Source: Deltaproteobacteria bacterium TL4 (lineage in GTDB: Bacteria; SAR324; NAC60-12). Taken from it: a stretch of DNA of 64,000 nucleotides. The DNA is taken from contig JBBCAX010000034.1 in the NCBI GenBank assembly GCA_051382335.1, forward strand, positions 20,512 through 84,511, read 5' to 3'. The translations under genes were made by a program, and so were the position numbers. The notes beneath the pieces are model-generated. The model did no database searches. It was not told the DNA's origin and saw only the letters and a list, made by a program, of their open reading frames with translations. Positions 29,973 through 48,286 of this stretch are shown piece after piece. Position 1 is the stretch's first letter. Every line of letters begins with the position of its first letter.

Positions 29973-30113
29973 TCACAAGCCTCCTCGGATACAGCGAACA
30001 TAGTTGTTATAGGACTTATCGTAGTAGCTCACGTAGCCATCGCTGAAGCCCACGCTCCACGCGTAGCTCGTGTCACCGGCGTAAGTAGTAGACGACCAAT
30101 AGCCCGAGGAATT
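29973..30113 (-). repeat. DGR variable region VR-A
   Basis: Colinear with VR-B and VR-C. Variable codons are TAC/AGC/GGC/GAT-type NNY, and the 3' end GGAGGCTTGTGA is shared. Confidence 0.75.
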
Positions 30114-30293
30114 GGTATTAGGAAAATAGGTCGAATTAATAGCAGGACTATAGACAGAATAATCAACAATGGATTGCAGTTCGTTTTTACTGGGGAGCCT
30201 CCAATCGCTTTTACCACCTAAACTCAAGCCTTCACAATAAGTCAAGGCGGCTTCCCAATTACGAGCGGTGTTATCATCTTCTTTTTGCCATAA
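29973..30293 (-). pseudogene. 5'-truncated DUF1566/Lcl domain carrying DGR variable region VR-A
   Basis: In frame directly after the TGA of the 30294-35780 gene (VRCVR*LWQKEDDNTARNW). About 94% identical to 36969-37287 outside the VR by hand count. Lacks the FTDN.DGTVTD start of the domain. Confidence 0.75.
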
Positions 30294-33200
30294 TCATCGA
30301 ACACACCGAACATACATGCTTATATTATTCTCCGATTTTACTTCTCCATTTTGAAAATTAACAAACCATACTATTTCGACTGTATTTTTACTAATAGGAT
30401 CGTAGTCATAATAATTAGTTTTGGACCAATAGTATGAAGATTTTGTATTAGGAAAAAATGAAGTATTGATTGCTGGATTGTAGTTTAAGTCATCCGTGAT
30501 AGACTCCAACTCTTTGATGTTTGGAAGACGCCAATCAGTTTTTCCACCCTGACTCAAATTTTCGCAATAGCTCAACGCATTTCCACGATTCTTTAATGTA
30601 TTGTCATCTTCTTTTTGCCACATCAGTTCAGAAAAATTGTCAGTAATAGTTCCATCACCATTATCTAAAAATGAGGAATCCGTATTTGAGTAACCGCGAA
30701 CACACCTCACACCATGTTTAAATCCCCATGACCGACTACCGACGGAACCATCTCTGAAAGAAACATCCCAAGCCAAATCCTGATTATTCGCATAACTTGT
30801 ATTTGACCAATAATTACCGGTATCTAAAAAGTTGAAATAAGATTCATCGTATCTTAATTCTTTGTTATAAATAATAATTCGAATCAGTTCCTTTTTGGAG
30901 GGCACTCGCCAATCTGAGTAGAACGATAATTCGAGGTTTTCACAATAAGTTACAGCATCCGACATTGTTGGTGTATTTGTAGCATTTGTTTTTTGCCACA
31001 CCAGTCCTGTGACATTATCAGTAACGGTTCCATCTTTATTGTCTGTATAAGACATTCTATTCTCTGAAGCATCTGAGAGCTCTTGTTCTGCTTTCGGAAT
31101 ATGTCCTGTAAAATCGTGAATTGCTTCACTAACCCAAGGACCTTCGCCATTGTTGTTTTTTGTAAAAACAAGTAAGTGGGTTGATCCAGAAGGAATGGAC
31201 GTGTTCGTATCAAAATCAAAACTTAGGTTACTTCCAGAAGCGGCAAGAGTTGTGATCGGAGTGCTGTTTACTTTTGTAGTCGCACTTGATCCCCAATAAA
31301 GTACATAATGTGTAATATCGCTCTCATATCTGGCTTTTGTAATTGTTACGCTTCCGCCTAACTCTCCAGCATCGGTATCTGTATCAACAAATACCACGCT
31401 GGTGGCATTATGAGATGGAACACCAACATCAACAACAACACCATTATGTCCTCCTCTAACACACTTGACATGATTCGTGTCGGTCTTCTCTGAACGCTCC
31501 ACAAAACCATAGTAAAAGTCCACAAACCAAGATTGAGTCATTCCAGCGGTAAATATGAATGTTGTAGATGACCAGTATTTTGATGAATAAGTGTTAGGAA
31601 AATAAGTAGATTCGATTGCAGGATTAAATTCGGAGTCATTAGTTATGGACTCCAATTCTTTAATGTTTGGAAGACGCCAATCCGTTTTCCCACCCAGACT
31701 TAAGTTTTCGCAATAACTTAAAGATTCCCCCCATGATATTTTTGTATAGTAATCGTTTTCTTTCTGCCACATCAACCCTGAAAGGTTATCTGTAACAGTA
31801 CCATCACTATTATCGGTAAACAACGTAAACTCACTTACTCCATTGCGAACACACCGAACATAGTTATTCAGCGACATATGTGAGCTATATACAACTCCGG
31901 AACCAAAATCAATAACCCAGGCTGTATTGCTAAATGCAATATAGTTAGAAGCTGTCCAATAATAATCAGAAGACTTCGTTTTACTGAAATAGGCCTCATT
32001 GATGCTGGAATTATAAGTCCTGTAATTCACAATACGCATCAACGTTTTTTTACTTGGCAGTTGCCAATCAGAAAAGGATGCCAAGTTCAGGCTATTACAA
32101 TAATCTTGAGCTTCTGACCATGTTCTTTTAGTGTTATCATCTTCCTTTTGCCATATTAATCCTGTGATATTATCGGTAATAGTTCCATCATCATTATCAG
32201 TATATGAAGGTTCATTGAGTAAGTAATCGTGGTCTTCACCCAAAGTTGAGGTATAGGAAATGGTTTGTCCTGTATCAGGAATATAATATCCATGACGACC
32301 ATTATCAAAAATGATCACATTAACACCTCTTGCCATTTCGCCCCTAGTGTTTTTGGTAAAAACGAGTAAATGGGTTGATCCAGATGGAATTGATGTATTA
32401 TCAAAATCAAAAGTCTGGTTATTTCCTGTAGCGGATAAAGTGGAAATTGGGATACTATTTGCTTTTGTTGTCGTATCTGATCCCCAATAAAGTACATAAT
32501 GAGTAATATTGCTTTCGTCACTGGCTTTTTTAATTGTTACGCGTCCTCCTAATTCTCCAACATCAGTATCTGTATCTAAAAAAGCTACACTATTTGCAGT
32601 ATGAACAGGAAAACTAACATTGCTTTCACCACTACCACGGACACAACGGACATAACATTCATTATTGCTTTTCCAATGGTCATGAACCTCTCCGTTGCTG
32701 AAATTCACATGCCATGAGTATAGGCGGATGTTGTTGGCTCTGGTAGTGGAAGAGCAATACTTATCTGATTTTGTATTTATGAAATATGTGGTATTTATCA
32801 CTGGATTGTATTTTGAGTCATCCGTGATTGACTCCAACTCTTTAATGTTTGGAAGACGCCAATCCGTTTCTCCTCCCAGACTCAAATTTTCACAATAACT
32901 CAGCGAGCTTTCCCCATTTTTTTTTGTGTTGTCATCTTCTTTTTGCCACATCAATTCTGAAAAATTATCTGTAATGGTACCATCACCATTATCATTATAA
33001 GAAAAAGTTAAATTTGAGGGTTTACGAACACATTTTATATACATCTCGGAAGTCTTACTGCCTGAAAATACATATCCATAACCTAATGAAACAGCAAAAA
33101 CATTATTTGAATCGTTAGAATCAACGGTTGAAGACCAAACAGCGGAGGATACGGAAGTGGGAAAAAAGATTGTATCAATGGCAGGCTCGTACATTCCATA

Positions 33201-35780
33201 ATTTATTATACGCATGAGTTCTTTCTTAGTTGGAAGACGCCAATCTGAATAAGACGCCAAGGTTAAATTGGCACAATAGCTTTCCGAAGCGTATGACCAA
33301 GGTTCTCTAAAGCTATTTTCACCTTGTTGCCACATTAATCCTGTTATCTTATCTGTGATAGTTCCGTCACTATTATCTATGTAAGAAAGTTCGTTATATA
33401 AATAATCATGATCTTCTCCAAACGTTTGTGTATAACCGATCGTTTGTCCAGTATCAGGAATATGATAACCGTAAATACCAACATCAACAATAGGAGCGTT
33501 TGCACATATCCTATTTTCACCTTCATCATTTTCGGTGAAAACTAACAGGTGGGTTACTCCTGAGGGAATCGGTGTATTAGCATCAAAACTGTATGATAAA
33601 TTACCTCCTGTTTTTGCAATGGAGCTAATTGCGGTAGAACTTTGTTTCGTGGTACTATTAATCCCCCAATAGAGAACGTAGTGGGTTATATCACTTTCAT
33701 CACTGGCTTTGAAAATTCTTACTTCTCCACTCAGTCTCCGAACATTAATATCGGTGTCGGTAAAGGTTACACTGAGGTCTGTGCAGGGTGAAACGGCTTC
33801 AATGATAACCACGTTGACCCCAGAGCTCATCTCTCCATCGGCATTTTTTGTAAATACCAAAAGGTGAGTCGCTTCTGATGGTATTGTTGTATTATTTGGA
33901 AAGGTATACGTTAAATTGCTTCCGGTTTTTTCTATAGTAGTAATTGGAGTAAGGCTTTGCTTGGAGGAACTACTCGATCCCCAGTAAAGAACGTAATGTG
34001 TAACATCGTTTTCGTCACTGGCCTTAGTCATTGTGACATCACCAGCTAATTGGCTGCCATCTAAATCAGTATCAGTAAAAGCCACACTAGAGGCGGCACT
34101 TGTGGGAACTCCCAAGTCAGTAATAGCCACGTTGATCCCCGTGCCCATTTCGCCATCAGTATTTTTTGTAAACACCAGTAAATGGGTTGCTCCTGAGGGA
34201 ATGGAGGTATCCAAGCTAAATGGGTGAGTCACATTACTTCCTGTTACAGCCAGGGAGGTGATTTCGGATGTACTTTGTTTTGCTGTAGAACTCGTCCCCC
34301 AGTAAAGAACGTAATGTGTAACATCGCTTTCGTCACTGGCTTTGATAATCGTTATATCGCCAGCTAACTGGCCGCCATCGAGATCAGTATCATTGAAGAT
34401 CACACTTACTGCGGCGTTTATTGGAACCCCTAAGTCAGTAATAGCCACGTTGATCCCAGTGCCCATTTCTCCATCGGCATTTTTTGTAAATACCAAAAGA
34501 TGAGTCGCTTCTGATGGTATTGTTGTATTATTTGGAAAGGTATACGTTAAATTGCTTCCGGTTTTTTCTATAGTAGTAATTGGAGTAAGGCTTTGCTTGG
34601 AGGAACTACTCGATCCCCAGTAAAGAACGTAATGTGTAACATCGTTTTCGTCACTGGCTTTAGTGACTGCTACATTTCCAGCCAACTTTCCACCCTCAAA
34701 GTCTGTATCTGTGAAGGACATACTGATCGCACTATGAGTTGGTACTCCTAAATCAGTAATAGCCACATTCACTCCTATCCCCATCTCTCCATTTGCGTTT
34801 TTAGTAAATACCAAAAGGTGAGTCGCTTCTGATGGTATTGTTGTATTATCTGGGAAGGTATGCGTTAAATTGCTTCCGGTTTTAACGATAGTAGAAATTG
34901 GTTTAGCACCTTGCTTCTTGTTAGAACTCGTCCCCCAGTAAAGAACGTAATGTGTAACATCGCTTTCGTCACTGGCTTTAGTAATTGACAGAAATCCTCC
35001 AAGTTCACCTCCATCTGGATCAAGATCAGTATAAGAAACGCTAACTGCGGCATTTTGAGGGGGGGGATGATTATCTGAATTCTGTTCTATTTCAGTAATG
35101 CTGTTATTAAGGTGAGCGGTTGCTTCTTCACTGGAAACAAGGGTTTGTTTTCCACCTGTCAACGCTGTTTCTTTTGAGACAGCTATAACCACTGACTGTA
35201 CCGTATTATCCGCTTCAAAAATTTCAGGAGGTACGTTAAAGTTTATCGTTTCCGCAACGTTCTCAATGGCGATAACAACAGCGGGAGTGATCGTAATCCC
35301 ATTTGTAGGATCGCCATCATCATCCAGAGTTTGTAGAAACCGCGCAATATTGGTGACGGCCTGATTGGATGCGTCGGTTGCGTTTTCTACTAGGTCTACA
35401 GGTGTAACAGTAGATTTTGCTTCCCCTTCACCAAGTACAATGCCTCCTACCGAAAATTGGACTCTGTTTCCTTCCTCGTAATAAAAGGTACCATATTCAT
35501 CAGTATTTCCTCTTTGTCCTCCTGAGACATAGACCACTCCATCCACCGGACTGTCTAAAAAGATGCCTTTCAGGATTTCAAGAGAGGCCTCTTGTTGTGA
35601 TGAAGTGTCCGAGTCCTCAGGGTGAGTCGCTTCTGAATTATCTGTTTCTTTGCTTTCTTCTATATTAGAAGTCCCTTTTTTTTCAGAATCATCTTTTCCT
35701 GATGTGTTATCACAACCATGAGTAAAGATCATACTTCCACAGAAAGTGAAAATTATAATTAGTATATTTATGTTTTTCAT
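30294..35780 (-). CDS. Large surface lipoprotein: 7 copies of a ~110-aa beta repeat plus 6 DUF1566/Lcl domains
   Basis: Lipobox-like IFTHGC; 7x FTDTD..GG.LAG..TKASDE..VTHYVLYWG; 6x DN.DGT.TD..GL.WQK..WRLP..EL..VRCVR. Confidence 0.88.
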   Translation of the reverse strand: MKNINILIIIFTFCGSMIFTHGCDNTSGKDDSEKKGTSNIEESKETDNSEATHPEDSDTSSQQEASLEILKGIFLDSPVDGVVYVSGGQRGNTDEYGTFYYEEGNRVQFSVGGIVLGEGEAKSTVTPVDLVENATDASNQAVTNIARFLQTLDDDGDPTNGITITPAVVIAIENVAETINFNVPPEIFEADNTVQSVVIAVSKETALTGGKQTLVSSEEATAHLNNSITEIEQNSDNHPPPQNAAVSVSYTDLDPDGGELGGFLSITKASDESDVTHYVLYWGTSSNKKQGAKPISTIVKTGSNLTHTFPDNTTIPSEATHLLVFTKNANGEMGIGVNVAITDLGVPTHSAISMSFTDTDFEGGKLAGNVAVTKASDENDVTHYVLYWGSSSSSKQSLTPITTIEKTGSNLTYTFPNNTTIPSEATHLLVFTKNADGEMGTGINVAITDLGVPINAAVSVIFNDTDLDGGQLAGDITIIKASDESDVTHYVLYWGTSSTAKQSTSEITSLAVTGSNVTHPFSLDTSIPSGATHLLVFTKNTDGEMGTGINVAITDLGVPTSAASSVAFTDTDLDGSQLAGDVTMTKASDENDVTHYVLYWGSSSSSKQSLTPITTIEKTGSNLTYTFPNNTTIPSEATHLLVFTKNADGEMSSGVNVVIIEAVSPCTDLSVTFTDTDINVRRLSGEVRIFKASDESDITHYVLYWGINSTTKQSSTAISSIAKTGGNLSYSFDANTPIPSGVTHLLVFTENDEGENRICANAPIVDVGIYGYHIPDTGQTIGYTQTFGEDHDYLYNELSYIDNSDGTITDKITGLMWQQGENSFREPWSYASESYCANLTLASYSDWRLPTKKELMRIINYGMYEPAIDTIFFPTSVSSAVWSSTVDSNDSNNVFAVSLGYGYVFSGSKTSEMYIKCVRKPSNLTFSYNDNGDGTITDNFSELMWQKEDDNTKKNGESSLSYCENLSLGGETDWRLPNIKELESITDDSKYNPVINTTYFINTKSDKYCSSTTRANNIRLYSWHVNFSNGEVHDHWKSNNECYVRCVRGSGESNVSFPVHTANSVAFLDTDTDVGELGGRVTIKKASDESNITHYVLYWGSDTTTKANSIPISTLSATGNNQTFDFDNTSIPSGSTHLLVFTKNTRGEMARGVNVIIFDNGRHGYYIPDTGQTISYTSTLGEDHDYLLNEPSYTDNDDGTITDNITGLIWQKEDDNTKRTWSEAQDYCNSLNLASFSDWQLPSKKTLMRIVNYRTYNSSINEAYFSKTKSSDYYWTASNYIAFSNTAWVIDFGSGVVYSSHMSLNNYVRCVRNGVSEFTLFTDNSDGTVTDNLSGLMWQKENDYYTKISWGESLSYCENLSLGGKTDWRLPNIKELESITNDSEFNPAIESTYFPNTYSSKYWSSTTFIFTAGMTQSWFVDFYYGFVERSEKTDTNHVKCVRGGHNGVVVDVGVPSHNATSVVFVDTDTDAGELGGSVTITKARYESDITHYVLYWGSSATTKVNSTPITTLAASGSNLSFDFDTNTSIPSGSTHLLVFTKNNNGEGPWVSEAIHDFTGHIPKAEQELSDASENRMSYTDNKDGTVTDNVTGLVWQKTNATNTPTMSDAVTYCENLELSFYSDWRVPSKKELIRIIIYNKELRYDESYFNFLDTGNYWSNTSYANNQDLAWDVSFRDGSVGSRSWGFKHGVRCVRGYSNTDSSFLDNGDGTITDNFSELMWQKEDDNTLKNRGNALSYCENLSQGGKTDWRLPNIKELESITDDLNYNPAINTSFFPNTKSSYYWSKTNYYDYDPISKNTVEIVWFVNFQNGEVKSENNISMYVRCVR

Positions 35781-35956
35781 ATTTCTACTTTGATTTGGCT
35801 TATTATTTTCAATAAAATCCCCCACCGCATACGGTCTCGCTAACGCAAAATATTCGGTATGCGAAAACGGGGTGTTTACGGACTAAACTCCCAAGAGAGT
35901 GGGGTACTAACCCAATGCTGTGCAATAAAAATTAATTCTTTTTTTATTAAATAAGT

Positions 35957-36136
35957 TCAAATGAACGTACCATCAAAGAAACTTATAGTCTTAGCATTCT
36001 CATTATTATCCTCGCTATGCAGAGTAGTAGACGACCAATAATGATGGGGGGCTTTTCTCTTTATTGTTATAGTTGCAACCAAAACAAAGGCTATAGAGAA
36101 GATCAAAAAGAAAAGGTAAATGGATGAAATTTTCAT
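35957..36136 (-). pseudogene. Signal peptide joined to a short Lcl-domain fragment
   Basis: Hydrophobic leader followed by YWSSTT..NAKTISFFDG. The 18 nt AGTAGTAGACGACCAATA (36023-36040) are identical to VR-A. Confidence 0.45.
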
Positions 36137-36203
36137 AATTCTCTTCCTGCAGGATGCTGATTTTGACATAGTCAAAGAGGACGGTTTAAGGGAATAATCC
36201 CCC

Positions 36204-36826
36204 TCAATTCATTTTGGCAAAAACCATTTCTATGATGTTTTCAAGGATTTCGATGTATTTATCAATTTCAGTAGAAGATAATGGCTTCACAGTTTTAATA
36301 GAGGATAAAAGCTCGTCGCTTACGACAGATTTTTTGGTTTCCATATCATTTACCCCTAGTTCAACAAGCTCTCTTTGGTATGAGTAATAATCTTCAAGAG
36401 AAAAAGAGGGATTATCGTTTACTTTATCTAATAGCAGCCTTGCAGCGTATTGATTATAGGTATTATGAATATGTTGTTCAACATAGCTAATTTGACCATT
36501 TAAGATTTTTTTGATTTCTTCTTTTGCTGTTTTTTGTTGAACCTCATCATGATAGATGGTTTCCATCGCAAGATGAACAATATTTTGAATGTGCATTGGA
36601 TAAACTTCTGGACCAACAGCATAATATCCAGCACGCCCCTTGTTCTCTCACCGTACACTGGCGTGAACGTCTCAACCACATTATCAACAACAGCTTGTCC
36701 TGTTTCACATTCCTCTGAATCTAGTTCATCAGCACACGCATTCAGGAGCATTATTGTACAAACAATAATGCTGCTAATAATACAGTTGATTTTAGATTGG
36801 TTAATATTGACTTCAATCCCCATCAT
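36204..36826 (-). pseudogene. Hypothetical lipoprotein split by a frameshift near 36645
   Basis: Lipobox-like LLNAC ORF (36500-36826) overlaps ORF 36204-36596; the frames can be joined at a GAGAGA run. Confidence 0.5.
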
Positions 36827-36899: not shown

Positions 36900-36968
36900 C
36901 GACAAGGGGCAAGCCCCTGTACCCCGCTTTTTTAAATAATCAAATTCCCAAATAATCAAATAATCAAC
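36900..36968 (-). promoter_or_regulatory. Putative DGR target-recognition region downstream of VR-B (TTATTTGA repeats plus hairpin)
   Basis: The stop is followed by repeated (G)ATTATTT units and then an AGGGG-CTTG-CCCCT hairpin. A near-identical copy follows VR-A; VR-C has similar repeats but no matching hairpin. Confidence 0.55.
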
Positions 36969-37109
36969 TCACAAGCCTCCTCGGACGCAACGGACATAGT
37001 TCGTATTAGTCTTATAGTAGCCGTCCACGTAACCATTGTAGAAGTACACGTACCACGCATAGCTCGTATAGCTAGCGCTGGTAGTGGACGACCAATAGTT
37101 CGACGACTT
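36969..37109 (-). repeat. DGR variable region VR-B
   Basis: 36969-37142 aligns with 39528-39701 with 16 mismatches, all at positions 1-2 of NNY codons. Confidence 0.9.
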
Positions 37110-37403
37110 GGTATTAGGAAAATAGGTTGAATTAATGGCAGGACTATAGACAGAATAATCAACAATGGATTGCAGTTCGTTTTTACTGGGGAGCCGCCAA
37201 TCGGTTCTGCCACCTAAAGTCAAGCCTTCACAATAAGTCAAGGCGGTTTCCCAATTGCGAGCGGTGTTATCATCTGCTTTTTGCCATATCAATCCTGATT
37301 CATTATCGGTTACTGTTCCATCTGCATTGTCTGTAAAAGAAGCGGCATAAACCACGTTGACCAAAAATAAAAATAGCCCCATCCAACAGATATATTTTTT
37401 CAT
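36969..37403 (-). CDS. Secreted single-domain DUF1566/Lcl protein, DGR target (VR-B)
   Basis: Signal peptide plus a complete Lcl domain; AGGAG RBS; lies directly downstream of the RT. Confidence 0.9.
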   Translation of the reverse strand: MKKYICWMGLFLFLVNVVYAASFTDNADGTVTDNESGLIWQKADDNTARNWETALTYCEGLTLGGRTDWRLPSKNELQSIVDYSVYSPAINSTYFPNTKSSNYWSSTTSASYTSYAWYVYFYNGYVDGYYKTNTNYVRCVRGGL

Positions 37404-37429
37404 TTTCTTCTCCTTTTCAAAGTTTTTTA

Positions 37430-38848
37430 TTAATTCAAGTGTTCTTGTTTATTGGCAGGAAACAACACTTTTTCGGTGATGACTCGTTTCTTTAAACCTG
37501 AACTGTAATACCCCTCTTCATCAACGACAATGTACGAGTAGCCATGCGCTAATATTCGCTTTTTGAAATGTTTTAACAATCTTTTGGGAAATCCGCATTG
37601 TCCTCGAAATCCTCGCTTTCCTTCTTCCATTTTCAGATTTAATAATTTCGAAGCCTGTATCGCCCTTTCGTCATATAATTCATAGTATTGACCCACCTGA
37701 AAAAAAATGAAAAATGTTTTGTAACGACCAGAAAACCAATAATATTGGTTTTTAAATTTTTTTGGAATATAAGGGGGTTCATAGAGAGGACGTAACTGAT
37801 TTTGTTTATCCAATAAAAACAGATGGTTCAACCAAGGATTTTTTCCCCAAATAGCTTGGGTCAATTGAGAGGCATCAGCGTGTTTAAAGTGTCCAATGTA
37901 AGAAGCCAGTGTTTGTCGAACAGCGTTTCTGTTTTCCAAAGACAAATCAATCATAACAGACTGTAACACTTCTGAGACCTCATCGGAGGGGGGTGTAGCC
38001 GAAACACAACTAATAAATGTTTTACTTTGTTTTATTGACGGCCTATCCCCCTGTCTTTTTATTTTGTTTTGAAAAACAATTTGTTTTTCAAGAGAGATGA
38101 GTTTCAGCTTCATGTTACTCACAACCCTGTTCCGAACAAGGGTATAACCGGGTCTGACAATATATCCCAAAAAATCAGACCCTTCACTCACTCGTTTTAG
38201 GATCACTCCAGGTTTCAAGGTCAAAGTCAGTTTTTGGTTGAGAAACACTTCGATAGACTCTTTCATGTGGAACAAGCGTTCTTTTGAGGGGTCTAGTAGA
38301 ATAAAATCGTCCATATACCTCACGTAAAACTGGCATTTTAGGCGGTGTTTTACGTATTGATCCAGCTCATTGAGATAGATATTAGCAAAAAACTGAGAAG
38401 TTAAGTTACCAATGGGCAAGCCTTTCCCTGGTAAAGTATGAAAGAGCGACTTATGAGGTGGAACCCTATCTAACAAGTCAGGGACACCTCGATAAGTGTA
38501 GTTTTCTATACAGGGATGTTGAAGAATTATCTTTGTCATTTGTAACAACGATTCCTCTTTTAAATGCTTTTGAATGATATCAAGCAGGATTTCCCGATCA
38601 ATACTCATAAAAAAACTCCGTATATCCAACTGTAGAAACCATGCGGTCACTTTCCCGCTTTTTGTGACACGAAGCATAAAGGAACGTAACCGCTCAACCG
38701 CAGCATGAGTTCCCTTGTTTTTTCTACAGGCGTAAGAATCATCAATAAACTTTGGTTCCCAAATTTGCTCCAAATGAGGAACCAGCAAATGATGAATAAC
38801 TCTGTCTCTAAAGTCCGCTGCGAAAACTTCTCTGAGTTTTGGTTTTCC
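37430..38848 (-). CDS. DGR reverse transcriptase with C-terminal MutS domain-I fusion; N-terminus missing
   Basis: KPKLREVFAADFRDRVIHH, SYACRKNKGTH, LDIRSFF, GLPIGNLTSQFFANIYLNELD, YVRYMDDF, DFLGY; C-terminal FFQVGQYYELYDERA..ASKLLNL..CGFP. An in-frame TGA at 38849-38851 caps the frame. Confidence 0.9.
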   Translation of the reverse strand, partial: GKPKLREVFAADFRDRVIHHLLVPHLEQIWEPKFIDDSYACRKNKGTHAAVERLRSFMLRVTKSGKVTAWFLQLDIRSFFMSIDREILLDIIQKHLKEESLLQMTKIILQHPCIENYTYRGVPDLLDRVPPHKSLFHTLPGKGLPIGNLTSQFFANIYLNELDQYVKHRLKCQFYVRYMDDFILLDPSKERLFHMKESIEVFLNQKLTLTLKPGVILKRVSEGSDFLGYIVRPGYTLVRNRVVSNMKLKLISLEKQIVFQNKIKRQGDRPSIKQSKTFISCVSATPPSDEVSEVLQSVMIDLSLENRNAVRQTLASYIGHFKHADASQLTQAIWGKNPWLNHLFLLDKQNQLRPLYEPPYIPKKFKNQYYWFSGRYKTFFIFFQVGQYYELYDERAIQASKLLNLKMEEGKRGFRGQCGFPKRLLKHFKKRILAHGYSYIVVDEEGYYSSGLKKRVITEKVLFPANKQEHLN

Positions 38849-39060
38849 TCACTGCAATCCCGTAATTGGGTCAATGCCTGGTATTTTTCAAATTGAGAGT
38901 TTGCTTGAATGACCAACGTCACCAATTTTCGGGACAAATTCCGAAGATCCTGCCCCAAGGCGTATTTATGGGAGCGAGGAAAATCTTTTACAATTTGTTC
39001 AGTCAAAACCGCTAACTCCATTGTTTTTTTATAAAGGGGTAAGTTTTCGTAATAAGCCAT
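38847..39060 (-). pseudogene. avd: Avd-like four-helix-bundle accessory protein, 3'-truncated (ORF reads on out of frame into the RT to 38647)
   Basis: LPLYKK..L..IVKDFPRSHKYALGQDLR resembles Avd. After LRDCSEE the DNA is RT coding sequence in another frame. Confidence 0.75.
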
Positions 39061-39380
39061 TATGTGGAAGCCTTAAGTCGAATGACCTCAGAAACAATTC
39101 GGGTCTTGTTTTCGTCCTGAAATGCAATCGCCACAGACTGTCCAGCTCGTAATAGTTTGCCTATATACGCATCCAGTCCTGATTTGGGAAAGCCTCCTGT
39201 CACATAGGGTTTTTCAGGGGTTCCCCCCATTTTTAATTTCAGACCTGTCAGCTGTGATAGCGTTTTAGCGTCTTCATTCATCAACTGCATGAAAGCACCT
39301 ACCTGCATCAGCAGGATGGTATCAGGTTCTTTTGTTTTAAGGTCTTCATATTGTAAAACTAATTTCTCTGAGTTCATCAT
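39060..39380 (-). CDS. Stand-alone MutS domain-I-like protein (MSL-type DGR accessory gene)
   Basis: QYEDLK..EPDTILLMQVGAFMQLMNEDA..LSQLTGLKL..GFP..LDAYIGKLLRAGQSVAI. Its stop overlaps the avd start (TAATG). Confidence 0.82.
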   Translation of the reverse strand: MMNSEKLVLQYEDLKTKEPDTILLMQVGAFMQLMNEDAKTLSQLTGLKLKMGGTPEKPYVTGGFPKSGLDAYIGKLLRAGQSVAIAFQDENKTRIVSEVIRLKAST

Positions 39381-39527
39381 AAGTCTTTCTCTTTCAAATT
39401 GTATTGATTCCTTTAATTTATGGGAATTCCCCCATTTTTCAGAGCTATCGTCAAAATGTAAAAAAAAATTTTCAGGCTCCGCCATTTTAAAAAAATAATC
39501 AAATTTCCAAATAACCAAATAACCGAC

Positions 39528-39668
39528 TCACAAGCCTCCTCGGACGCAACGGACATAGTACGTATTAGTCTTATCGTAGCCGTACACGTGACCATAGTAG
39601 AAGTTCACGCTCCACGCAGAGCTCGTACCGTAAGCGTAGGTAGTGGACGACCAATAGTACGACGACTT
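39528..39668 (-). repeat. DGR variable region VR-C
   Basis: 3' end of the large lipoprotein gene; differs from VR-B only at NNY positions 1-2. Confidence 0.9.
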
Positions 39669-42600
39669 GGTATTAGGAAAATAGGTTGAATTAATGGCAG
39701 GGTTCACAAGCGCGTTATTGACGATCAACATTAGTTCTTTTACTGTAGGGAGTCGCCAGTCTGAATGAGAACCCAGTGTCAATGCACTACAATAACTCCC
39801 AGCATTTGACCATGTACGTGTGCTATTATCGTCTTCCTTTTGCCACATTAAACCAGTTACGTTATCCGTAATAGTTCCGTTCCCATTGTAGGTATAGGAG
39901 GGTGGATTAATACTATAATCGTGATCTTCACCAAAGGTCGTAGTATAGGAAGTCGTTTGTCCTGTGTCAGGAATACAACTTGGGCAGATATCGGCGATTT
40001 TCATACTCACTCCTGTTGTCATTTCAACAGTGTTATTTTGTGTAAAGACCAGTAAGTGGGTGGCTCCGGTAGGCAGTGAAGTATTTGCTGAAAAGGTATG
40101 CGTTACATTGGAACCGGTTGCCGCCAACGTAGCAATAGCGGTTTGCCCACTCAGTTTGGTGCTGGCACCTGAACCCCAGTAGAGGGCGTAGTGAGTCACA
40201 AAAGTTTCATCAGTAGCTTTGGTGATGGTAACAGCACCAGCTAATTCATTTTTGTTTCCGTCCGTATCCGTGAATGAGACACTAACAGCAGTAAATGGTT
40301 GATCACCAATAGTAACATTGACCCCAGTACTCATTTCCGCTCCGGAATTTTGTGTAAAGACCAGTAAGTGGGTGGCTCCTGTCGGCAGTGAGGTGTTTTC
40401 TGAAATGGTATGCGTGACATTGGAACCGGTTGCCGCTAAAGTAGCAATAGCGGTTTGTCCACTGAGTTTGGTAGTGGCATTTGAGCCCCAATAGAGAGCA
40501 TAGTGAGAAATATAGGTTTCATCAGTGGATTTGGTGATAGTAACCGTTCCTGCCAGTTCGTTTTGATTACGGTCAGTATCCGTGAACGCAACACTGACCG
40601 CTGTTTCAGTTGGTACTGGTGGCGCTAGATTTCCAGAGGCGTTATTGTCCGTGATTTCGCCACTGACGCCTTCTGTCATTTCGCCATAAGTGTTGTAAGT
40701 ATAGACTAAAAAATGCGTAGCTCTTGGTGGTTTCCAGGTGTTGAGAGGCAGATTATATTTTAATTCGTCATTGGTTTTCGCAACCGTTGTCAACAGGGAG
40801 AGTTTGGTCGTGGCGTCCGTTCCCCAATACACTTTATATCCGGTGATATGGCTTTCATCGCTGGCTTTGATGATCGCGATTTTTCCAGCGACCTGATTTC
40901 CCTCCGCGTCAAAATCCACAAAACTGACACCTCCCGCTTTGAGGGTGGGGGGTTGAGAATCCGCAAGTTTAACACTGACTGGTGTTAAATATTCCCCTTC
41001 TCCATATAAGGTGTAGACAAGTAGATGTGTTACTCCTTGTGGAATGGCAGTGTTCGGGGGAAGGAGATAAGAAAGATTGGAGCCTGTTTTAGAAAGTTGG
41101 GTAATCAGTGTGGTTTTTGTATTCGCGTCCGTTCCCCAATAAAGGTTGTAAGCAATTAGTTCCGATTCATCCGGGACTTTTGAAATGGTGAGTGTCCCGC
41201 CAATTTCTCCGACTTGAGGATCAGAATCGATCATGGTAATGGTTTGCGGACGTCGAAAAGTCGCTGTAATGGAATCATTTACCGGCCCTGTCATATTTCC
41301 AACCGCGTCTTTAAACCAGGCATAAAGGGTTTTTGTGCCATTACTGTAGGGAAAGGTATAAGCGACATTTTGGGAAAAGGCCTTTGTTGATGTCACTGAG
41401 ATCCATCCACTTGCGTTAAGTGCTGGGGTTTGTGAGTTTTCTGAAAGATAATATCCGGTAACGCCAATATTGTCCTGAGCGGCAAGGGTTAAGGTGACAC
41501 TGTCATCAAAGGTAGTCGTTTGTCCATTATTAATCGAAATTGTAGCCGCGGAAGGTGAGCTTGGATCGGTGTTTATTGTGAAACTTCCTCCGCTGACCGG
41601 AGTGCTTTGAACATCATTTCCCGCCAAATCCTTCGCGTTTTGAAGGGTGACAGCAGCCGTTCCGTTTACTGTTCCAACTGTGTGAACGTATTGGTAAACC
41701 GTGGCACTTACTTTAGTCATTGGTTTTGAAATGGTCTGGGAAGGTTCCTGGATGCGGAGGGAAGGAACAGGACTATCGCTGATTTGCTCGTTAAAAGTGG
41801 CGGTGATGGTGAGGGTTTCTCCGCCTGTTAGAGTCTGGTTGATGGAATAGGTAATTTTTGCGGTAGGGGCGGTGGTGTCGATGGTGATTGCTTTTGATCC
41901 GGTTTTTGACCAAAACCCTTCAATATTTTCCTCGACATAGAGCGTGTGTGTGCCTTCTGTTAAATTGGTTGCTGGTGTAAAGAACGTTTCTAACGTTTCG
42001 GTCGCGTCTTCATTCAAATTACTGTGATCCAATTTGTAGCGGTAAAGTCCCGAACCATTCGTCACAAGAGGAGTCCAACTCCAGGGGGGTTTAACATTTT
42101 TATTAGGTGATATCCCCGCGACAGTGGGCGAAGTATTAAGGGGAAGAGGGTTGCTTACCAGATCTTTGGTAGAAGTTTTGGACAAAGGGATTGGTTTTTT
42201 ATAATCCAGAAAATGAGGCTCAACGTAATACTCAATGGTTTTTTGATCTTGACTATAAAACGCGATATGAGCTCTGCCAAAACGGTCTAAAGCCAAAGCG
42301 CTGTATTTACCAATATCGTTAAACCCAACTCTTGGGACTTCAATTCTCCAGCGATTGCTCAATCCAAGGGCTTCTCCTCGTAAGCGAATGGCGTAACGAA
42401 GTTCTTTTTTTCCTGGATGATAATAAGAAACACGGGCGGCGTTAAAGCGGTCAACGGCAAAGCCCAAAACATTATCCTGAATACTGCCTAACGATTCAAT
42501 GACAGAAGACAACCAGCTTCCATCCTGTTTAATGGTGTGAATAAGGCTTCCCCCTTTCATGTAAACTGCTTGGGGACGACCGTCCTGATCAATTCGAAGG

Positions 42601-44758
42601 TGAAGGCCATAACCCGCCTCTTCAGAAGCATCAACGACTTCAATTTCCCATTTATTAGAGTTGGTTTCAGAAGCTCCATAAAACAAATGCTGATTCATTC
42701 TAAAGAGGATTCTGGGTTCTCCCTTCGCATTGTAGGTTAAATCGTTATGAGTGCCTTTTTCTCCCACCACAACCGTTGAAATATTCCATGTTTCTCTCAA
42801 GGCGTCTGAGGACGTCGCATACTTTAAGGTTTTGCTATCTTTGTAATATAAAAGCCCAAGTAACCCTGTGTTTCCTGATGCCATACTGATTGACGCCTGA
42901 TTAAAGGAGGCTGAGAGGGTGACCTCATCAAGCTCTCTTTTTACCCAATGTCCACTTCCTTGCTGAATCCAGCAACTGAGTTTGTTCCCTTCAATGGCAC
43001 AAGTACTTGGAAGAACATTTAAGGGGTCTATTTTGATTTTACTGAATTTTCCATAGTCTCCGTTTCCATCCAGGGCTTCACTGTTCCATATTCCTTTGAA
43101 AAAAGTATAAATGATTTTTTTGTACTGGATATCATAGGAGCTGATATTGATTTCATCCTGATTAAGAGCCAGAGAGACATCGGTTCCAAAGTCGCTATCA
43201 TTAATGGGGTATCGTGACGGGCGGTTTGACCTCAATGGTGGCAGGCGTCGCGTAAATTTCGTCACAACTGACATTTAGCAGCGTATATCCTTTCTTTACC
43301 CCTTTGAATAGGGCGGACTCAGTGTTGGACGATTGTTTGCTGACATAGCGGTCATCGAATTCCCACTTAAGTCCGTCTTTACAATCAAGAGAGGTTGGGG
43401 CGCCTCGTGTATCGGTGGCATACACATTAAAAATACGAGTCCCTTCAACGTCGAGTGATAAGCGTATGGGTGAAATCGCAATGGATTGAATATCGGAAAA
43501 ACTTTCGCCCACTTGAACAGACGCTTGCAGTGTGGTTCCTTGAAAAGACATGGTTGCCGTAATACTGGCAGGACCACTGGAAAGTTTGGAAATTTCGCCT
43601 CGATCATCAATTTTAACGATGTCATCATCACTGCTTTTCCAATCCACTTCAATAAAATCTTCTTGACTAAGATCATTAATCAGAAGATTTTCAGTGGCTT
43701 TGTCAGTCACCCTGGCTTTAAATCCGACTTGTCCATTTTTAGTGAGTTTGACGATTGGAGGGGAGAGGGTCAAACAATAAGTGTCATTACATTCGCTGGA
43801 TGAAATTTCCGTCACTTTTTTTATTACGCAGGAGTTCCCTTCAAACTCGTAACCTTCGTTACAGGAGATAATTTGACACGCGCCAAAATCGGTCCAAATA
43901 CCATCGTTATCACAGGTTTTGGAGCGTTCACCTGTTCCATTCTGAATGGTACAGCTAACGACTTCCTTGGCATTTGCAGTACATTCCTTTACTGTTGTCA
44001 CGTCAGCCACACAGGTACTTCCAGAAGCAGTAAAACCATTGTCACAGGAAGTAATCTGGCAAGCCCCCAATTCAGACCAACTTTCGTCGCTTTTACAGGT
44101 CTTTGTTCTTTGGCCGTTGCCATTCAGCACCGTACATGGGACGTTGGCTGTTTCATTGGGAGTACATTCCTGAGTGGTCGTATCTTGAGCGCAATCGCCT
44201 TCATCATAATTGAAGAGGGAACAATTTAACGAGCTATGGCAGGTTTTGTCTCCTATGAGGCTTTCTGTGATACAGCCTCCGAGACAATCTGTTATTTCAT
44301 TAATAGCGCACCCAGGTTCCTCTTCAATTTTTTTTGCCAAACAAGCATTTCCGGACAATTCAAAGCCATCGTCACAAACTGTCACTTGGCAAGTAGTGAG
44401 CTCAGACCAACTTCCATCACTTTTACAGGTTTTCGATTGTTCTCCTTATTCCATTAAGCATGGGACATGACACTTTTTCTATCTTATCGAGAGTACATTT
44501 TGATGGGGTTGGAACCGTGTTCCCTGTATCACTGGAACTATCACTAGTCCCTGCATTTTCAACGGGAATGGTTGTATTGTCTGCCGTCGTTGTGCTGGTC
44601 TCTTCGTTAGTTGAGGTTTCGTTTGATTCGGTAGGAGTTGGTGAAGAATCACCTCCAGAAGGAGAATCGTCACAAGAGAGGAAAAACAGGCCAAGGATCA
44701 TCAAGAAGATAAGACAATAGATTTTAATGGATATATTCTTTATTTGTATATTTTTCAT
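39528..44758 (-). pseudogene. Large lipoprotein DGR target (~1740 aa if repaired): Cys-rich repeats, Ig-like, propeller-like, 4 beta repeats, C-terminal Lcl with VR-C; two frameshifts
   Basis: ORFs 44423-44758 (lipobox FLSC), 43201-44385 and 39528-43274 join on removing one base at ~44446 (NGI|GEQSKTCKSDG) and one at 43206-43209 (VTIP|INDSDFG). Confidence 0.75.
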
Positions 44759-44775: not shown

Positions 44776-47700
44776 TTATTGTTTTCTTACTTTTATTTCA
44801 AGATAGGCCGTATCCCCGGTATTCAATTTCCAATTCTGAGTTTCTTGCCCAAAAATCACATGACTGACTTTCATGGACGCTGTATTTGGAGACATGCTCC
44901 CTTCATTAAGCGCAATGACTTTCAAAATATTTGATTGTAAGGTGTTGATTGTGACCTTCATGATTTTAGCAGCATTTGTAAGCGTTAAATCCTCTTGTAA
45001 GACCTCATTGTTTAATATCACTTTGATTCGATCCCCATCTTCTTCCGCATTGTCCCAAACGGTAATCTCGATTTCGATTTGGTTGACGGTAATGGGGTCA
45101 AGTAACTGATTATTTTGCAGGGGGTAATAAGCAATAGAAGCCTGATCAGCAGCAATGTTTCCCGCAGCGTCCCGGAACCAAACATAAAGCGTTTTGCTGC
45201 CTTCATTTCCTCCCAACAAAAAATTGACTTCCTCATCAAACGATCTTTTTGAGGAAAAATGATTCCAATTGAAATCGGATAAGGACGGGGCTTCATTGAT
45301 TTCAGAGAGGTAGTATCCTGTAAGGCCGATATTATCCGTTGCTTTTATGTGCACCTGTACTTCTCTAGTCGTTGTTTCCTGGGCTCCATTATTGATAGAA
45401 ATGAAGGTGTTTTGAGGTGCTGCTTTAAAATCCAGGGAAGTAAAATCAATTTTGATACGAAAATTTTCTCCTTGATGACTCACCCCTGTTTCATTTTCAA
45501 CAAACGTTCTTAACAAATACTCTCCTGATTCAAAAAAATCCAGTTGACTGAAAAGAATGGTGAAGGTGTCCTCACATTTTGTATTGCAGGGAGCGATACT
45601 ATTTTCGATATATTGTTGTTCCTTCGCTTCTGAGATAATAGTGAATCCCTGTTTGACAATGGGTGTTCCATGATTCGTGTCATAAAAAAACTCAATTATA
45701 ATCCCGTCGTTAGCTTGATTGATTATCGTTACAGAAGCGTCTTTTATGGTAGAAAACGGGCTATTGGAAGGCTTGGGTTCAATGGAAACCGTGTTTGAAG
45801 GTTGGCTTTCTATCAAATCACTATTGAGTGCGGTGAGATAGAATTGGTGCGTAAGCCCATTTTGCAACGTAAGCCCGGATAAAGAAGAATCGAAGGTGGT
45901 TTTATCAATGACGGTACTGATATGAGACCATTTTGTGGAGTTTGGGTATTTCAAGTAAATTTTATAATTAGATACCCCGGTCACCGCATCCCAACTGAGG
46001 AGAACAGAATGGTCTTTGGCTGTTGCGGTAAGGTTAGTCGGAGGAACAGGAGGTGGGGCATTAATGAATAGGATACTATCGAAAACGCCATCAACAGAGA
46101 TATTTCCCGCAGCGTCTCGAAACCAAACGCTAATTTTTTTCTCATCCAAGCCACTACTGAGTTTAAAATTTACGGTCTGAGCTAAATTCTTTGTAGCGGA
46201 AATCGTCTGCCAAGGGGTAAACGAACCGTTTTCAGAAAAGATAAACCCCGTGATTCCTACATCGTCTTGGGCCGTAAGCGTTAAAGAGACCGTTTGCTCT
46301 ATGGTTTTTTCGAGACCATTGTTAATAGAAATGGTTCCTGTCGGAGCAACCGTATCTTCAGTGGGTTGGGGTTGCTGAATTCCCTCAACAGTGGCCGCAC
46401 CACAAAGCTTTCTTTCAAAATTATCAATCACACAAAGTTTAATGGTGCTGTTTCCTGTTGTTGAAATACGAATATTTTGATTTTTTATACCATCGGGGTT
46501 TCTTTCATATTGAGCCAAGGAGTTACATTCTTCGCTTGCGTTGGTTTTTTCAATACACCATTGATATTTAAAAATGTTATTTTGTTGAGGAACTTCAATC
46601 GTAGAACTACATTTTACGGATTCCTCAAGAATAACGGTAGCGTGCTCACAGGCAACTGTCACTACAAGTGAATCGGGGATTTTGACGCAGGCATTACCCG
46701 AAGAAATAAAACTCATCACAGACTAAAAGCAAACATTCACCCCATTCGCCCCACGTTTCGTTGCTGGTACAACTTCGTATTTGTTGCCCTGTCCCTTTAT
46801 CTAAAGAACAGTATCTCAAGCTTGTTTCTTGTTCGGCAGGCTCACAAATCTTGATGGTTGGATTGAGAGGCGCTTCTTTGGGTTTTTGCATTGCGATGAC
46901 TGCGTCGATTCCGTCTTTCGCGTCAGCGGTGAAATTTAAAACAGATGAGGCACAACCCCCTATATCACCTACCGCACAAGTTACAACGTCTACCGCAGTG
47001 GAGGCTTTATCGAGTAATTGGCTATCCGTAATATCGGCTAAAATTCCGATTAATGTTCCACCACAAGAATAAGCCGCAATAGGAGTTAAGAGTCCGCCGG
47101 TTTGTACCGCGCCATAGACGCTGAGTCCACAACCCACAGCCCCGATTGCTTTTGCAGAGGCTCTTATCAGTCTGGTTGGAATACTTTCCTCAACCTCTAA
47201 AACACGATCGTTACGTTGGTTGGTCAGGATATAGGGAATTTCAATATAATCTATCTTCCCCTCAGGGGTAGTAATTTTCAGCTCTACCGTTTTTCCAGTG
47301 TAGTTGGAAAACGTCAAATAATACCCACTTGCTGTTAAAGAAACAGGAAGGCTCTGCTTATCGAATTCAAACCTTGCGGTTTTCCCTTTTGGAGTTTCTA
47401 AAATAACCTCGTACCCTTCATTTAGGTCATGGGACATCAAAAACAGTTTTCCCCCCTCAGCATCAGAACCCATAAGGGCTGTTTGCGCCCCTGGTATTTT
47501 CATTATACCGAGGCTCACTCCAGACTTTTGCAATGTGTATTGAGTAACCTCTATGTCGCTTGAAGCATCTGCCGATGATCCTGTTTGAGGGGACGTATTG
47601 GTATTATCGCCATTAACGGGATGATTATTGCTGTTACTTGAGGAGGGATCAGTCGTACTTTGAGGGAGAGGGGCCTTGTCGCTGGAGTCTGAAGATATCT

Positions 47701-47848
47701 CATTACCGGTTTCATTCGAAGCCGGGGTATCGTTTGACGTTTGACCAGGTATCTGATTTTCATCGGTAGCGGGTTGGCAACTTCCTACCAACAAAGACAA
47801 GAACAGACCAATAAACACCAATTTGTGATATTTCAGCATCTTTACCAT
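44776..47848 (-). pseudogene. Surface lipoprotein (Cys-rich, Ig/FN3-like domains; ~1020 aa if repaired) split by one frameshift
   Basis: ORFs 46694-47872 (lipobox VGSC) and 44776-46719 join at ~46708-46711, restoring VCDE.FISSGNAC, which matches the CDDGFELSGNAC repeat of the next gene. Confidence 0.7.
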
Positions 47849-48286
47849 AGTAACCTCGCTTTGAACCCGCAAGGTGAATTATCTTTGTAACTGCCAAACC
47901 TATCAAACCGTATTATACAACTTCAGATTTCCTTTTATGATTTATAGCATCCATAAAGAAACGAAGCTTTCCTTTACTGTGAGTTAGGCATAAACCGCAC
48001 AAAAGATATCCCCCTTATTTAAATGTTTCATATTGTGAACGAATAAAGTCAACTCTTGTAAAAACTATAAACATAACAAAGAATTTTTTATATCAAATAA
48101 AAATCCCGTTGTAAATGCTTTATTGTCTGACTGAAAAGTATTCTAAATTTGTTATACAGAATGGGTAAAAACTAGAAAATATTTATACTATATTTCACAA
48201 ATCTATTTACTTTTGGGAAGTGATGTTGTCCTTATCTAAGGGGGAAGTTGTTCCTGCTTATTACTGTTGCGTCGCAAAGGAAAGTT

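Follow-up and report, generated by a model that had tools for sequence, protein, structure and literature searches.

Two 174-nt segments at the 3' ends of two genes in the window (the whole 64,000-nt stretch analysed here, on contig C34) resemble the VRs of a DGR and raise the question of which template wrote them. The first-pass annotation had described these segments as VRs whose TR was missing. A recount gave the pattern that it had reported: 36969-37142 and 39528-39701, both 174 nt long, show 16 mismatches spread over 12 codons. Each mismatch falls on the first or second base of an NNY codon, every one of the 12 codons encodes a different residue in the two segments, and the third bases are all unchanged. 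The TR itself is present in the assembly, in an intact DGR on another contig (C135) (Table 1). Indeed, the core of this TR (124 nt, with 43 A and 81 non-A sites) agrees with both VRs at the non-A sites: VR1 differs from it at 13 A sites, VR2 differs at 17 A sites, and both are identical to it at 81/81 non-A sites, so that the proposed single template for both genes holds. All 16 sites at which the VRs differ from each other lie opposite an A of this TR (hypergeometric P = 5e-9), and the single non-A difference between VR1 and the C135 TR is located at 36978, near the 3' end. The TR sequence that had been reconstructed from the two VRs agrees with the real one at 130 of 135 nt in a comparison made by eye, each 'w' being scored as a match (all of them are A). 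One of the five wrong bases is in codon 1, two are in codon 30 and two in codons 44-45; those in codon 30 are explained by the same mutated codon being carried there by both VRs. Only 37108-36969 and 39667-39528 are TR-like, and the 34 nt with which the repeat begins (37142-37109 and 39701-39668) are common to both genes and absent from the TR. The DGR reading is upheld by A-only TR-VR mismatches in the core and by the presence of avd and a full-length RT in the C135 cassette; the annotation was silent on the broken MSL-avd-RT cassette between the two VRs and on the deletion of the local TR.

Table 1. Coordinates of the features discussed in the text (window positions, except for the two features on contig C135).
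Feature	Position	Strand	Remarks
V3, headless small-target copy	29973..30296	-	VR at 29974-30112
1843-aa protein with six Lcl_C domains	30294..35825	-	none matches the TR; stop abuts V3
GC-rich hairpin, then T run	36902..36920	-	downstream of VR1
8-nt-period T-rich repeats	36934..36968	-	directly after VR1
VR1	36969..37108	-	TR-matched tract 37108-36979
Small target gene	36969..37403	-	144 aa; N-terminal hydrophobic leader and one Lcl_C/DUF1566 domain
RT remnant	37430..38842	-	without first ~72 codons; YMDD and C-terminal MutS_I-like domain kept
Deletion junction	38842..38863	-	avd codon ~66-71 joined to RT codon ~73
avd 5' half	38863..39060	-	69% identical to C135 Avd over 71 aa
MSL (MutS-like) accessory gene	39060..39518	-	intact ORF
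8-nt-period repeats	39493..39527	-	directly after VR2; no hairpin
VR2	39528..39667	-	tip of large target
Large target gene	39528..44758	-	lipobox-like N terminus (by eye), repeated low-complexity domains, C-terminal Lcl_C
C135 TR	19622-19484		intact DGR, genome G000
C135 avd	19791-20102		PF22296 above cut-off

The intact element on C135 has the order target-MSL-avd-TR-RT/MutS_I-target and encodes an RT of 508 aa with a YMDD motif and a PF00078 match, an Avd and an MSL with a MutS N-terminal match. Relatives adjoin TR-VR pairs in 52/82 and 70/80 loci. A MutS-like accessory gene together with avd, and no HRDC, was found in the window cassette as well as in the C135 cassette, an HRDC having been noticed, on inspection by eye, at the unrelated C153 cassette alone. 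The C135 TR is the only Lcl_C-type TR found in the assembly, and its RT the only full-length one of that type. Seven VRs on five contigs match this TR, three of them being further remote VRs (C187, C53 and C172) with no cassette match in the fetched stretches. Together, the seven VRs show 116 differences at TR adenines and one at 567 non-A positions; adenines at position 1 of AAY codons are changed in 80/112 cases and those at position 2 in 31/112, against 5/77 for the other adenines. Contigs C34 and C135 both fit the tetranucleotide profile of the genome (82nd and 84th percentile). The closest foreign TRs among 47 others differ from the C135 TR at 18-25% of aligned non-A sites (9/50, 14/68, 22/91 and 23/90 for the best four).

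The assignment of the targets to the DUF1566 (now Lcl_C) C-type-lectin class was confirmed by Pfam and structural matches. The small target, whose signal peptide was called by eye from the hydrophobic leader, matches PF07603 (E=1.7e-40), and its VR corresponds to residues 99-144, at the 3' end of the Lcl_C domain. Its structure model (pLDDT 91.6) has a predicted C-type lectin fold and finds its best structural match in the Lcl C-terminal domain 8q4e (Foldseek E=6e-5; VIA Z 14.1, rmsd 2.3, 112 aligned), with further matches to TvpA 2y3c (Z 9.0) and Mtd 1yu0 (Z 8.3); a sequence search of solved structures returned nothing, whereas the fold search did match. The large target, annotated as a lipoprotein of ~1740 aa, would count 1742 codons only if two frameshifts were ignored; as assembled, it consists of three overlapping ORFs in three frames (44423-44758, 43201-44385 and 39528-43274), with +1 shifts near ~44430 and ~43220. 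The C53 target is likewise frameshifted, which fits decay of these genes and counts against the takeover in trans proposed below.

In the cassette between the two VRs, the RT remnant has no internal stops and is 53% identical to the intact C135 RT, the avd remnant covers positions 5-59 of 107 of PF22296 and 1-60 of 104 of NF033474, and the MSL matches PF01624 (E=3.7e-15, residues 54-139) and is 59% identical to the C135 MSL. Compared with the C135 cassette, ~610 nt are absent, comprising the 3' half of avd, the spacer, the TR and the start of RT; the window locus alone is therefore not an autonomous DGR, having neither a TR nor a whole avd or RT in cis. A promoter scan gave a site count no higher than in shuffles. 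Relatives also carry cassettes of this layout in a decayed state: in G059:C61 the start of MSL is fused to the end of RT, and in G009:C31 the end of RT alone remains. One explanation, the least probable of those considered, attributes the deletion to misassembly or to a minority variant, the organism keeping an intact cassette at this locus. The assembly is a draft of 445 contigs, and Thiohalocapsa PB-PSB1 has coexisting intact and degraded variants of one DGR locus according to the available text of PMC10907252; however, the junction lies within an 84.5-kb contig without N and joins two unique coding stretches rather than repeats, the missing avd and RT pieces were found nowhere in the rest of the assembly, and breaks resembling frameshifts are uncommon across the genome (36 in 4176 coding ORFs, a lower bound from a crude scan). 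Since the RT remnant, the MSL and the small target have neither stops nor shifts, the deletion may be recent; a recent deletion would have left little time for a takeover afterwards, and the takeover may thus predate it.

The window cassette is a paralogue of the C135 cassette, with 44-60% of third codon positions differing. Indeed, at identical residues, the third-position differences between the two loci amount to 119/230 in RT, 20/45 in avd, 33/57 in MSL, 29/50 in the small target upstream of the VR and 42/70 in the large target. In the VR core, 0/41 non-A third positions differ from the C135 TR in either window VR. This identity despite the divergence of the cassettes, with V3 beside, points to a likely takeover by C135 in trans: both repeats are VRs of a DGR whose local cassette has been gutted, and were likely overwritten by the intact C135 element (probability of about 0.7). 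It counts against this reading that a near-identical second cassette may be lacking from the draft assembly.

As established DGR biology would have it, the C135 TR RNA would be reverse-transcribed by RT-Avd with random bases opposite adenines, mainly those of its 16 AAY codons, and the cDNA would replace any homologous VR with the right 3' signal. The window genes would formerly have been served by another template, as this genome suggests, and the C135 cDNA would have paired with them through the conserved blocks at both TR ends, the interior being replaced wholesale. Such pairing would explain both the ending of the foreign sequence at the TR borders and the non-C135 3' tail of the two VRs. 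The product would likely be a family of Tyr/Gly/Ser/Asp-rich binding tips on surface or secreted proteins with a C-type lectin fold.

The former template may have left a trace in V3, a gene copy located 7 kb from the small target gene. V3 is 93% identical to this gene upstream of the VR (173/186) and 96% downstream (70/73), but 74% in the VR (104/140), and third positions differ at 5/61 upstream and 14/41 inside the VR (Fisher P = 0.0015). The V3 VR shows 16/81 non-A differences from the C135 TR, and the 3' tail of V3 is that of VR1 and VR2, not that of C135. The V3 VR thus bears the signature of a different template and is likely a fossil of the lost TR of the cassette. Identity of the deleted window TR to the C135 TR is excluded in an indirect manner only, which weighs against the takeover. 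A contrary course of events, judged unlikely, is that the window TR became identical to that of C135 by cassette recombination, wrote the VRs in cis and disappeared later through the deletion; VR1 and VR2 would since have been frozen or only incidentally served in trans. The still open frames of the RT remnant and MSL, compatible with a recent deletion, and the conserved end blocks of the G059 and C135 TRs, which could seed recombination, speak for it. However, it requires an additional unseen event, the 3' tails of both VRs are those of V3, whereas the cis VRs of C135 and G059 carry their TR's own 3' tail, and the three other remote VRs fit the C135 TR with no cassette match in the stretches fetched, so that trans action is needed anyway.

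Other templates appear to have acted in this genome. VRs on C140, C326 and C103 form a second 'ghost' template family, with 2-4 differences among members and 20-21 from the C135 TR, and no TR for this family was found in the 445 contigs. No close relative of the window RT was present among 8000 candidates scored, the best being the C135 RT (53%), so that the lost TR is not recoverable from a sister locus; a scan of the genome contigs with the window RT gave one weak locus only, and an RT tree placed the window, C135 and G059 RTs at the base, their branching order not being separated. Capture is not automatic, since the decayed locus C61 of G059 mismatches the TR of that genome at 5 non-A sites.

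The 34 nt common to both genes upstream of the TR border and absent from the TR indicate that VR-to-VR exchange has also happened. The two VRs of C135 similarly share 33 nt upstream with 1 mismatch, and the near-identical hairpin tails found at five Lcl_C ends (twice in the window and on C53, C103 and C187) are a further sign of exchange at the DNA level. These features would suit ordinary gene conversion from other VRs, rather than retrohoming, as the cause of VR homogenisation, but this explanation is highly improbable: any two of the seven VRs differ at 12-24 of 43 A sites but hardly ever at a non-A site, the C135 match stops at the TR 5' border with flanks that do not resemble the ones around the C135 VRs, and conversion alone would neither respect the TR borders nor renew A-site diversity. 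The flanking VRs were also considered as scars of cassette integration, an idea discarded as long shared flanks occur in only 1 (C135) of 8 sandwich-type loci.

The repeats with an 8-nt period behind the stop codons are likely the target mark (distal IMH element). They occur right after VRs in 36/48 related DGRs and in 39/52 held-out DGRs, i.e. in ~3/4 of 100 related DGRs, and no description of them was found in print. By location, their frequency is 74/97 for VRs adjoining avd, 43/49 for upstream VRs at a greater distance and 6/8 for VRs located after RT (counts omitting L056, a duplicated region, and L183, a protein repeat). A role as avd promoter or ribosome site is unlikely, as they are found behind VRs far from avd too. 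No link with MutS_I domains was observed, the repeat being carried by 9/11 loci in which a MutS_I-like match was present and by 27/37 in which it was absent. An EM motif search gave no clean octamer but a degenerate motif, with 4 as the commonest spacing, followed by 1, 8 and 7, and no weight matrix is therefore claimed. The loose 8-nt regex is unspecific alone: it matches 509/2589 ORF ends in this AT-rich genome and, when 70 nt are scanned, also the stretch after the C135 TR. In the outgroup of 13 phage loci, 12 of which have a pair, it matches 3/13 rows, one of the 13 rows being a spurious reverse-strand BPP-1 pair.

The hairpin is absent after VR2 and after both C135 VRs. After VR1 it starts ~48 nt behind the stop and has a loop that, on the sense strand, does not read GRNA, unlike BPP-1-type hairpins (7-10 bp GC-rich stem, GRNA loop, 4-34 nt after the VR). 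In the system formed by C135 and its targets, an invariant block rich in GC is present, as is a tail that is shared imperfectly, together a candidate IMH/IMH* pair.

It is conceivable, if less than probable, that in this large DGR lineage the 8-nt array behind a VR, rather than a hairpin, is the target address, allowing capture by any live TR-RT and hence successive template dynasties. The array and two conserved end blocks in an Lcl_C gene would then be enough for capture; an incoming cassette would overwrite the old target tips and old cassettes would decay. In this genome, one living dynasty (7 VRs) and at least two dead ones would be represented, the relic cassette having been caught after the handover. 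If so, hypermutation could be aimed by transplanting the array as a signal.

The literature already describes MSL-type DGRs with DUF1566/Lcl_C targets, as well as remote targets and trans service of degenerate loci; the core system is known and the present case is a well-predicted new example. In the available text of Wu et al. 2018 (PMC5758913), MSL DGRs with DUF1566 targets, e.g. the Legionella DGR, form Architecture D (category 'd', CLec2 VRs). The elements described here share with it the avd-TR-RT core, the MutS-like accessory gene and an RT that is extended at its C terminus by a MutS_I-like domain. Also shared are the multiplicity of targets, their DUF1566/Lcl_C class, with lipoproteins and short proteins of a single domain among them, and the A-to-N changes in AAY codons; the present elements differ in that the window cassette is a deleted relic, and in the 8-nt repeats behind targets, with a hairpin only sometimes. 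The same text reports inverted repeats in 34% of DGRs, and direct repeats go unmentioned in it. In Thiohalocapsa PB-PSB1, degenerate DGR loci are served in trans (Dore et al. 2024, PMC10907252); as presented in the available part of that study, the served loci belong to one class, arose by recent duplication and were degraded by transposons and MITEs, and their diversification is documented by read data. By comparison with these loci, the window relic differs from its donor at about half of third positions and is accompanied by a VR that is a likely fossil of another template; both features point to its capture by a foreign one. Treponema denticola, HRDC-type according to PMC5758913, has seven remote targets (PMC5758913; also PMC6602519), and in it as in cyanobacteria (PMC7517822) one TR matches several dispersed CLec genes, as for the five remote VRs here, and older paralogues no longer match the TR; these networks have other target and accessory classes, and successive template families in one genome are not described in the available parts of these reports. 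With Bordetella phage BPP-1 (NC_005357; PMC3240598), the present system shares a TR/VR pair, Avd and RT, and has a candidate counterpart of its imperfect IMH/IMH* pair after a GC-rich block; in BPP-1, as far as the available text goes, a GC-rich hairpin with a GRNA loop is needed for efficient homing and there is one cis target. The BPP-1 locus (L194) has no 8-nt regex match, and its IMH contains two short YTGA units at the same place (by eye).

Less ordinary are the takeover across diverged cassettes, of which this locus is likely an unusually clear record, and the 8-nt-period repeat after VRs. The former would be a natural case in which a DGR can likely replace a VR from a template ~20% different at non-A sites, and bears on the homology needed for homing and on the origin of remote-target networks. 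The hairpin that guides BPP-1 is present in only ~1/3 of DGRs, according to the available text of PMC5758913, and the 8-nt repeat is a concrete, mutable candidate for VR/TR discrimination in hairpin-less DGRs. Furthermore, the first ATG of the C135 RT lies inside the 3' end of the TR, as it does in 7/42 related loci tested.

The two 174-nt repeats singled out by the first-pass annotation show, on recount, 16 differences spread over 12 codons, each at the first or second position of an NNY codon and with every codon change non-synonymous. Both lie at the ends of genes on the minus strand that encode an Lcl_C (formerly DUF1566) domain, the target class that had been proposed. The TR was presumed missing, but an all-adenine version is present on contig C135 of the assembly (6.59 Mb, 445 contigs, completeness 100%, contamination 2.6%), in which the window is C34:20512-84511; by eye, 130 of the 135 reconstructed nt fit it and the remaining 5 do not. 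One template does fit both genes: over the 124-nt TR core compared (43 A, 81 non-A), VR1 (3' end of the small target) departs from it at 13 A and 0 non-A sites, VR2 (3' tip of the large target) at 17 and 0, and the differences between VR1 and VR2 all lie opposite a TR adenine (16/16, P = 5e-9). This is a genuine DGR signal, ordinary in kind and well foreseen.

The C135 cassette is intact and comprises, in order, a 1090-aa target, MSL, avd, the TR, a 508-aa RT with a MutS_I-like tail and a 150-aa target. Its TR is the sole Lcl_C-type one detected in an AAY-rich scan of all contigs. An ungapped scan returned 21 TR-like sites in the genome, of which seven match closely (VR1, VR2, the cis pair of VRs on C135, and one each on C187, C53 and C172), with 116 A differences vs 1 non-A difference in the pooled cores. 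In these seven, the first position of AAY codons is altered in 80/112 cases, 49 of them to T, and the second in 31/112, 27 of them to G; other adenines are altered in 5/77. The first ATG of the RT (C135:19511) falls within the TR 3' end, as in 7/42 related loci; gene calls extending into the TR are a possible cause of the Lcl_C match on some database RTs.

Features of the window and of two other contigs of the same assembly
Feature	Position	Strand	Remarks
Large target		-	First in gene order, upstream of MSL
MSL	39518-39060	-	
avd, 5' half	39060-38863	-	
RT remnant	38842-37430	-	YMDD kept, no stop
Small target		-	Last in gene order, after RT remnant
V3	29973-30296		Headless copy of the small target gene
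VR upstream flanks	37109-37142; 39668-39701		
Short ORFs	35957-36826	-	Between 1843-aa gene and small target
ORF pair	44776-47872	-	392 aa (lipobox-like start) and 647 aa; overlapping, different frames
FadL-type outer-membrane channel	49844-51091	-	Adjoins 2007-aa protein
2007-aa protein	51180-57203	-	Big_5 Ig-like domains
C135 TR	C135:19622-19484		
C153 DGR (locus L014)	C153:4040-6070		HRDC-like gene (by eye) with avd and RT; TR follows RT
C153 TR; VR	C153:5938-6066; 3502-3630		

Between VR1 and VR2 lies a relic cassette with the C135 layout minus about 610 nt (the window has 20 nt where C135 has 633), which in C135 hold the rest of avd, a spacer, the TR and RT codons 1-72; the deleted avd and RT coding pieces were not found on any other contig of the assembly. 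G059:C42, from a genome belonging to the same class, has this arrangement intact; it is decayed in G059:C61 and G009:C31, and in G057:C39 a large and a small target are adjacent with the cassette absent. Among the 61 genomes searched, an RT match at 1e-20 occurs in only 3 and Lcl_C domains in 22. Wu 2018 (PMC5758913) describes DUF1566 and remote targets as well as MSL genes and RTs that end in MutS_I, and degenerate DGR loci served in trans are described in Dore 2024 (PMC10907252).

The window cassette is an old paralogue of that on C135. The RTs share 53% identity. Where residues are identical, the third codon position differs in 119/230 (RT), 20/45 (avd) and 33/57 (MSL) cases, and in 29/50 and 42/70 in the targets upstream of the VR. 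In the VR core, 0/41 non-A third positions differ from the C135 TR. TRs by themselves are less conserved than that: the G059 TR differs from it at 20 of 81 non-A sites, and among 47 foreign TRs even the four nearest do so at 18-25%. V3 serves as an internal control. Its identity to the small gene is 93% upstream of the VR, 96% downstream and 74% inside it; its VR departs from the C135 TR at 16 non-A sites, of which 14 are third positions (14/41 vs 5/61 upstream, P = 0.0015). A 3' tail in which one non-A base differs from the C135 TR is common to V3, VR1 and VR2. It is thus likely that this gene family was formerly written by another template and that VR1 and VR2 were rewritten later, within the TR borders. 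V3 would be a record of the lost local TR.

Several points count against such a takeover. The local TR, being deleted, is unreadable; the RT remnant is still open, which suggests a recent deletion; and the decayed G059 locus shows 5 non-A differences from its own genome's TR. Furthermore, 34 nt upstream are common to both window genes and absent from the TR, so VR-to-VR exchange occurred too. In each cassette, 33-34 near-identical bases immediately upstream of the TR border, absent from the TR itself, are common to both cis targets, as also at a few other loci (L055, L083). The frameshifts in the large target and the C53 target, detailed below, count here as well. Takeover by the C135 template, with its fossil control, remains the likely reading and, together with the repeat described below, the added value of this locus; capture by a diverged template was not found in a literature search or in the consulted passages of PMC5758913, PMC10907252, PMC8144416, PMC12875486, PMC3240598, PMC7517822, PMC8867640 and PMC6602519.

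Three further VRs (C140:21104, C326:2639, C103:28385), with 2-4/81 non-A differences among themselves and 20-21/81 from the C135 TR, point to another template, absent from the assembly. DGR relics are unusually plentiful in this genome. A second, unrelated DGR on C153 has a different, non-Lcl_C VR class, with 22 A and 0 non-A differences between TR and VR and 8-nt repeats behind the VR; six further AAY-rich TR-like copies of its type occur (C387, C133, C156, C58, C207, C208), those on C387, C133 and C208 adjoining partial RTs. Older VR-like ends at C60:43201 and C115:1438 are decayed targets, since they carry in-frame stops through non-A changes. In the relatives G009 and G057 (90-97% complete), several VR-like Lcl_C ends have 8-nt repeats (L102, L108, L109, L111, L112) and the RT query used found no match; these are orphaned target sets.

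T-rich units at 8-nt spacing follow all 7 current VRs (those matching the C135 TR) and 7/10 older VRs of the genome under a strict pattern, devised after viewing these sites, that matches 8/2589 long-ORF ends. A first set of 82 RT-related loci (the best 80 metagenome loci of >600 candidates, C135 and G059) yielded TR-VR pairs at 52 loci, with 48 TRs that are distinct. A loose pattern, likewise devised after viewing the data, is present behind 36/48 VRs, against a mean of 13 and a maximum of 20 in shuffles. It also follows 5/48 TRs, 20/277 other ORF ends and, among AT-rich ORF ends, 10/47; pattern-free lag-8 autocorrelation is 0.42 vs 0.24-0.33 at other lags. With the loose pattern fixed beforehand, 80 held-out viral loci (pairs from 70, 52 new TRs) gave 39/52 VRs (shuffles: mean 9.7, maximum 18) vs 3/52 TRs, and a lag-8 value of 0.42 vs a shuffle maximum of 0.29; both sets consist of kin, and the counts overstate independence. 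Hairpins of at least 7 bp lie behind only 12/48 and 11/52 VRs, respectively. Distant phage DGRs show the loose pattern in 3/13 rows, and some have repeats of other letters. Such short direct repeats stand immediately 3' of the VR in FP_Lagaffe (L197), BalMu-1 (L198) and FP_Mushu (L204), with lag-8 values of 0.69, 0.41 and 0.38 and weak or no hairpin.

The repeat starts at the point of divergence between VR and TR; in BPP-1 this position holds the part of the IMH that is unlike IMH* (PMC5758913). The repeat is therefore read as the putative distal IMH of this DGR lineage, a testable candidate for hairpin-free target recognition. A periodic direct repeat after VRs was not found in main-text passages of the same eight papers or in the literature search, although Wu's TR-VR alignments or Legionella papers may show it.

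The AlphaFold2 model of the 144-aa small target (pLDDT 91.6, 90 sequences) best matches the Legionella Lcl C-terminal domain (Z 14.1, rmsd 2.3, 112 aligned), followed by further proteins with a C-type lectin fold, among them TvpA (Z 9.0) and Mtd (Z 8.3), both DGR targets; the 16 variable codons lie on residues 102-135. The usual reading of this fold is adhesion or receptor variation. A SAR324 cluster bacterium has a named homologue of the small target. Secretion and lipidation of the targets are predicted from the N-terminal sequences by eye. Two +1 shifts break up the large target, and at least one such shift interrupts the C53 target; either error or decay may be the cause; a crude scan found 36 frameshift-like breaks among 4176 coding ORFs, a lower bound, as it caught only one of the large target's two. 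The ORF pair upstream of the large target looks like one more split surface-protein gene. Among the short ORFs between the 1843-aa gene and the small target, one carries an Lcl-like end that is degenerate, and two overlap in a way that suggests a frameshift. Many large predicted surface proteins are encoded between 30 and 57 kb of the window.
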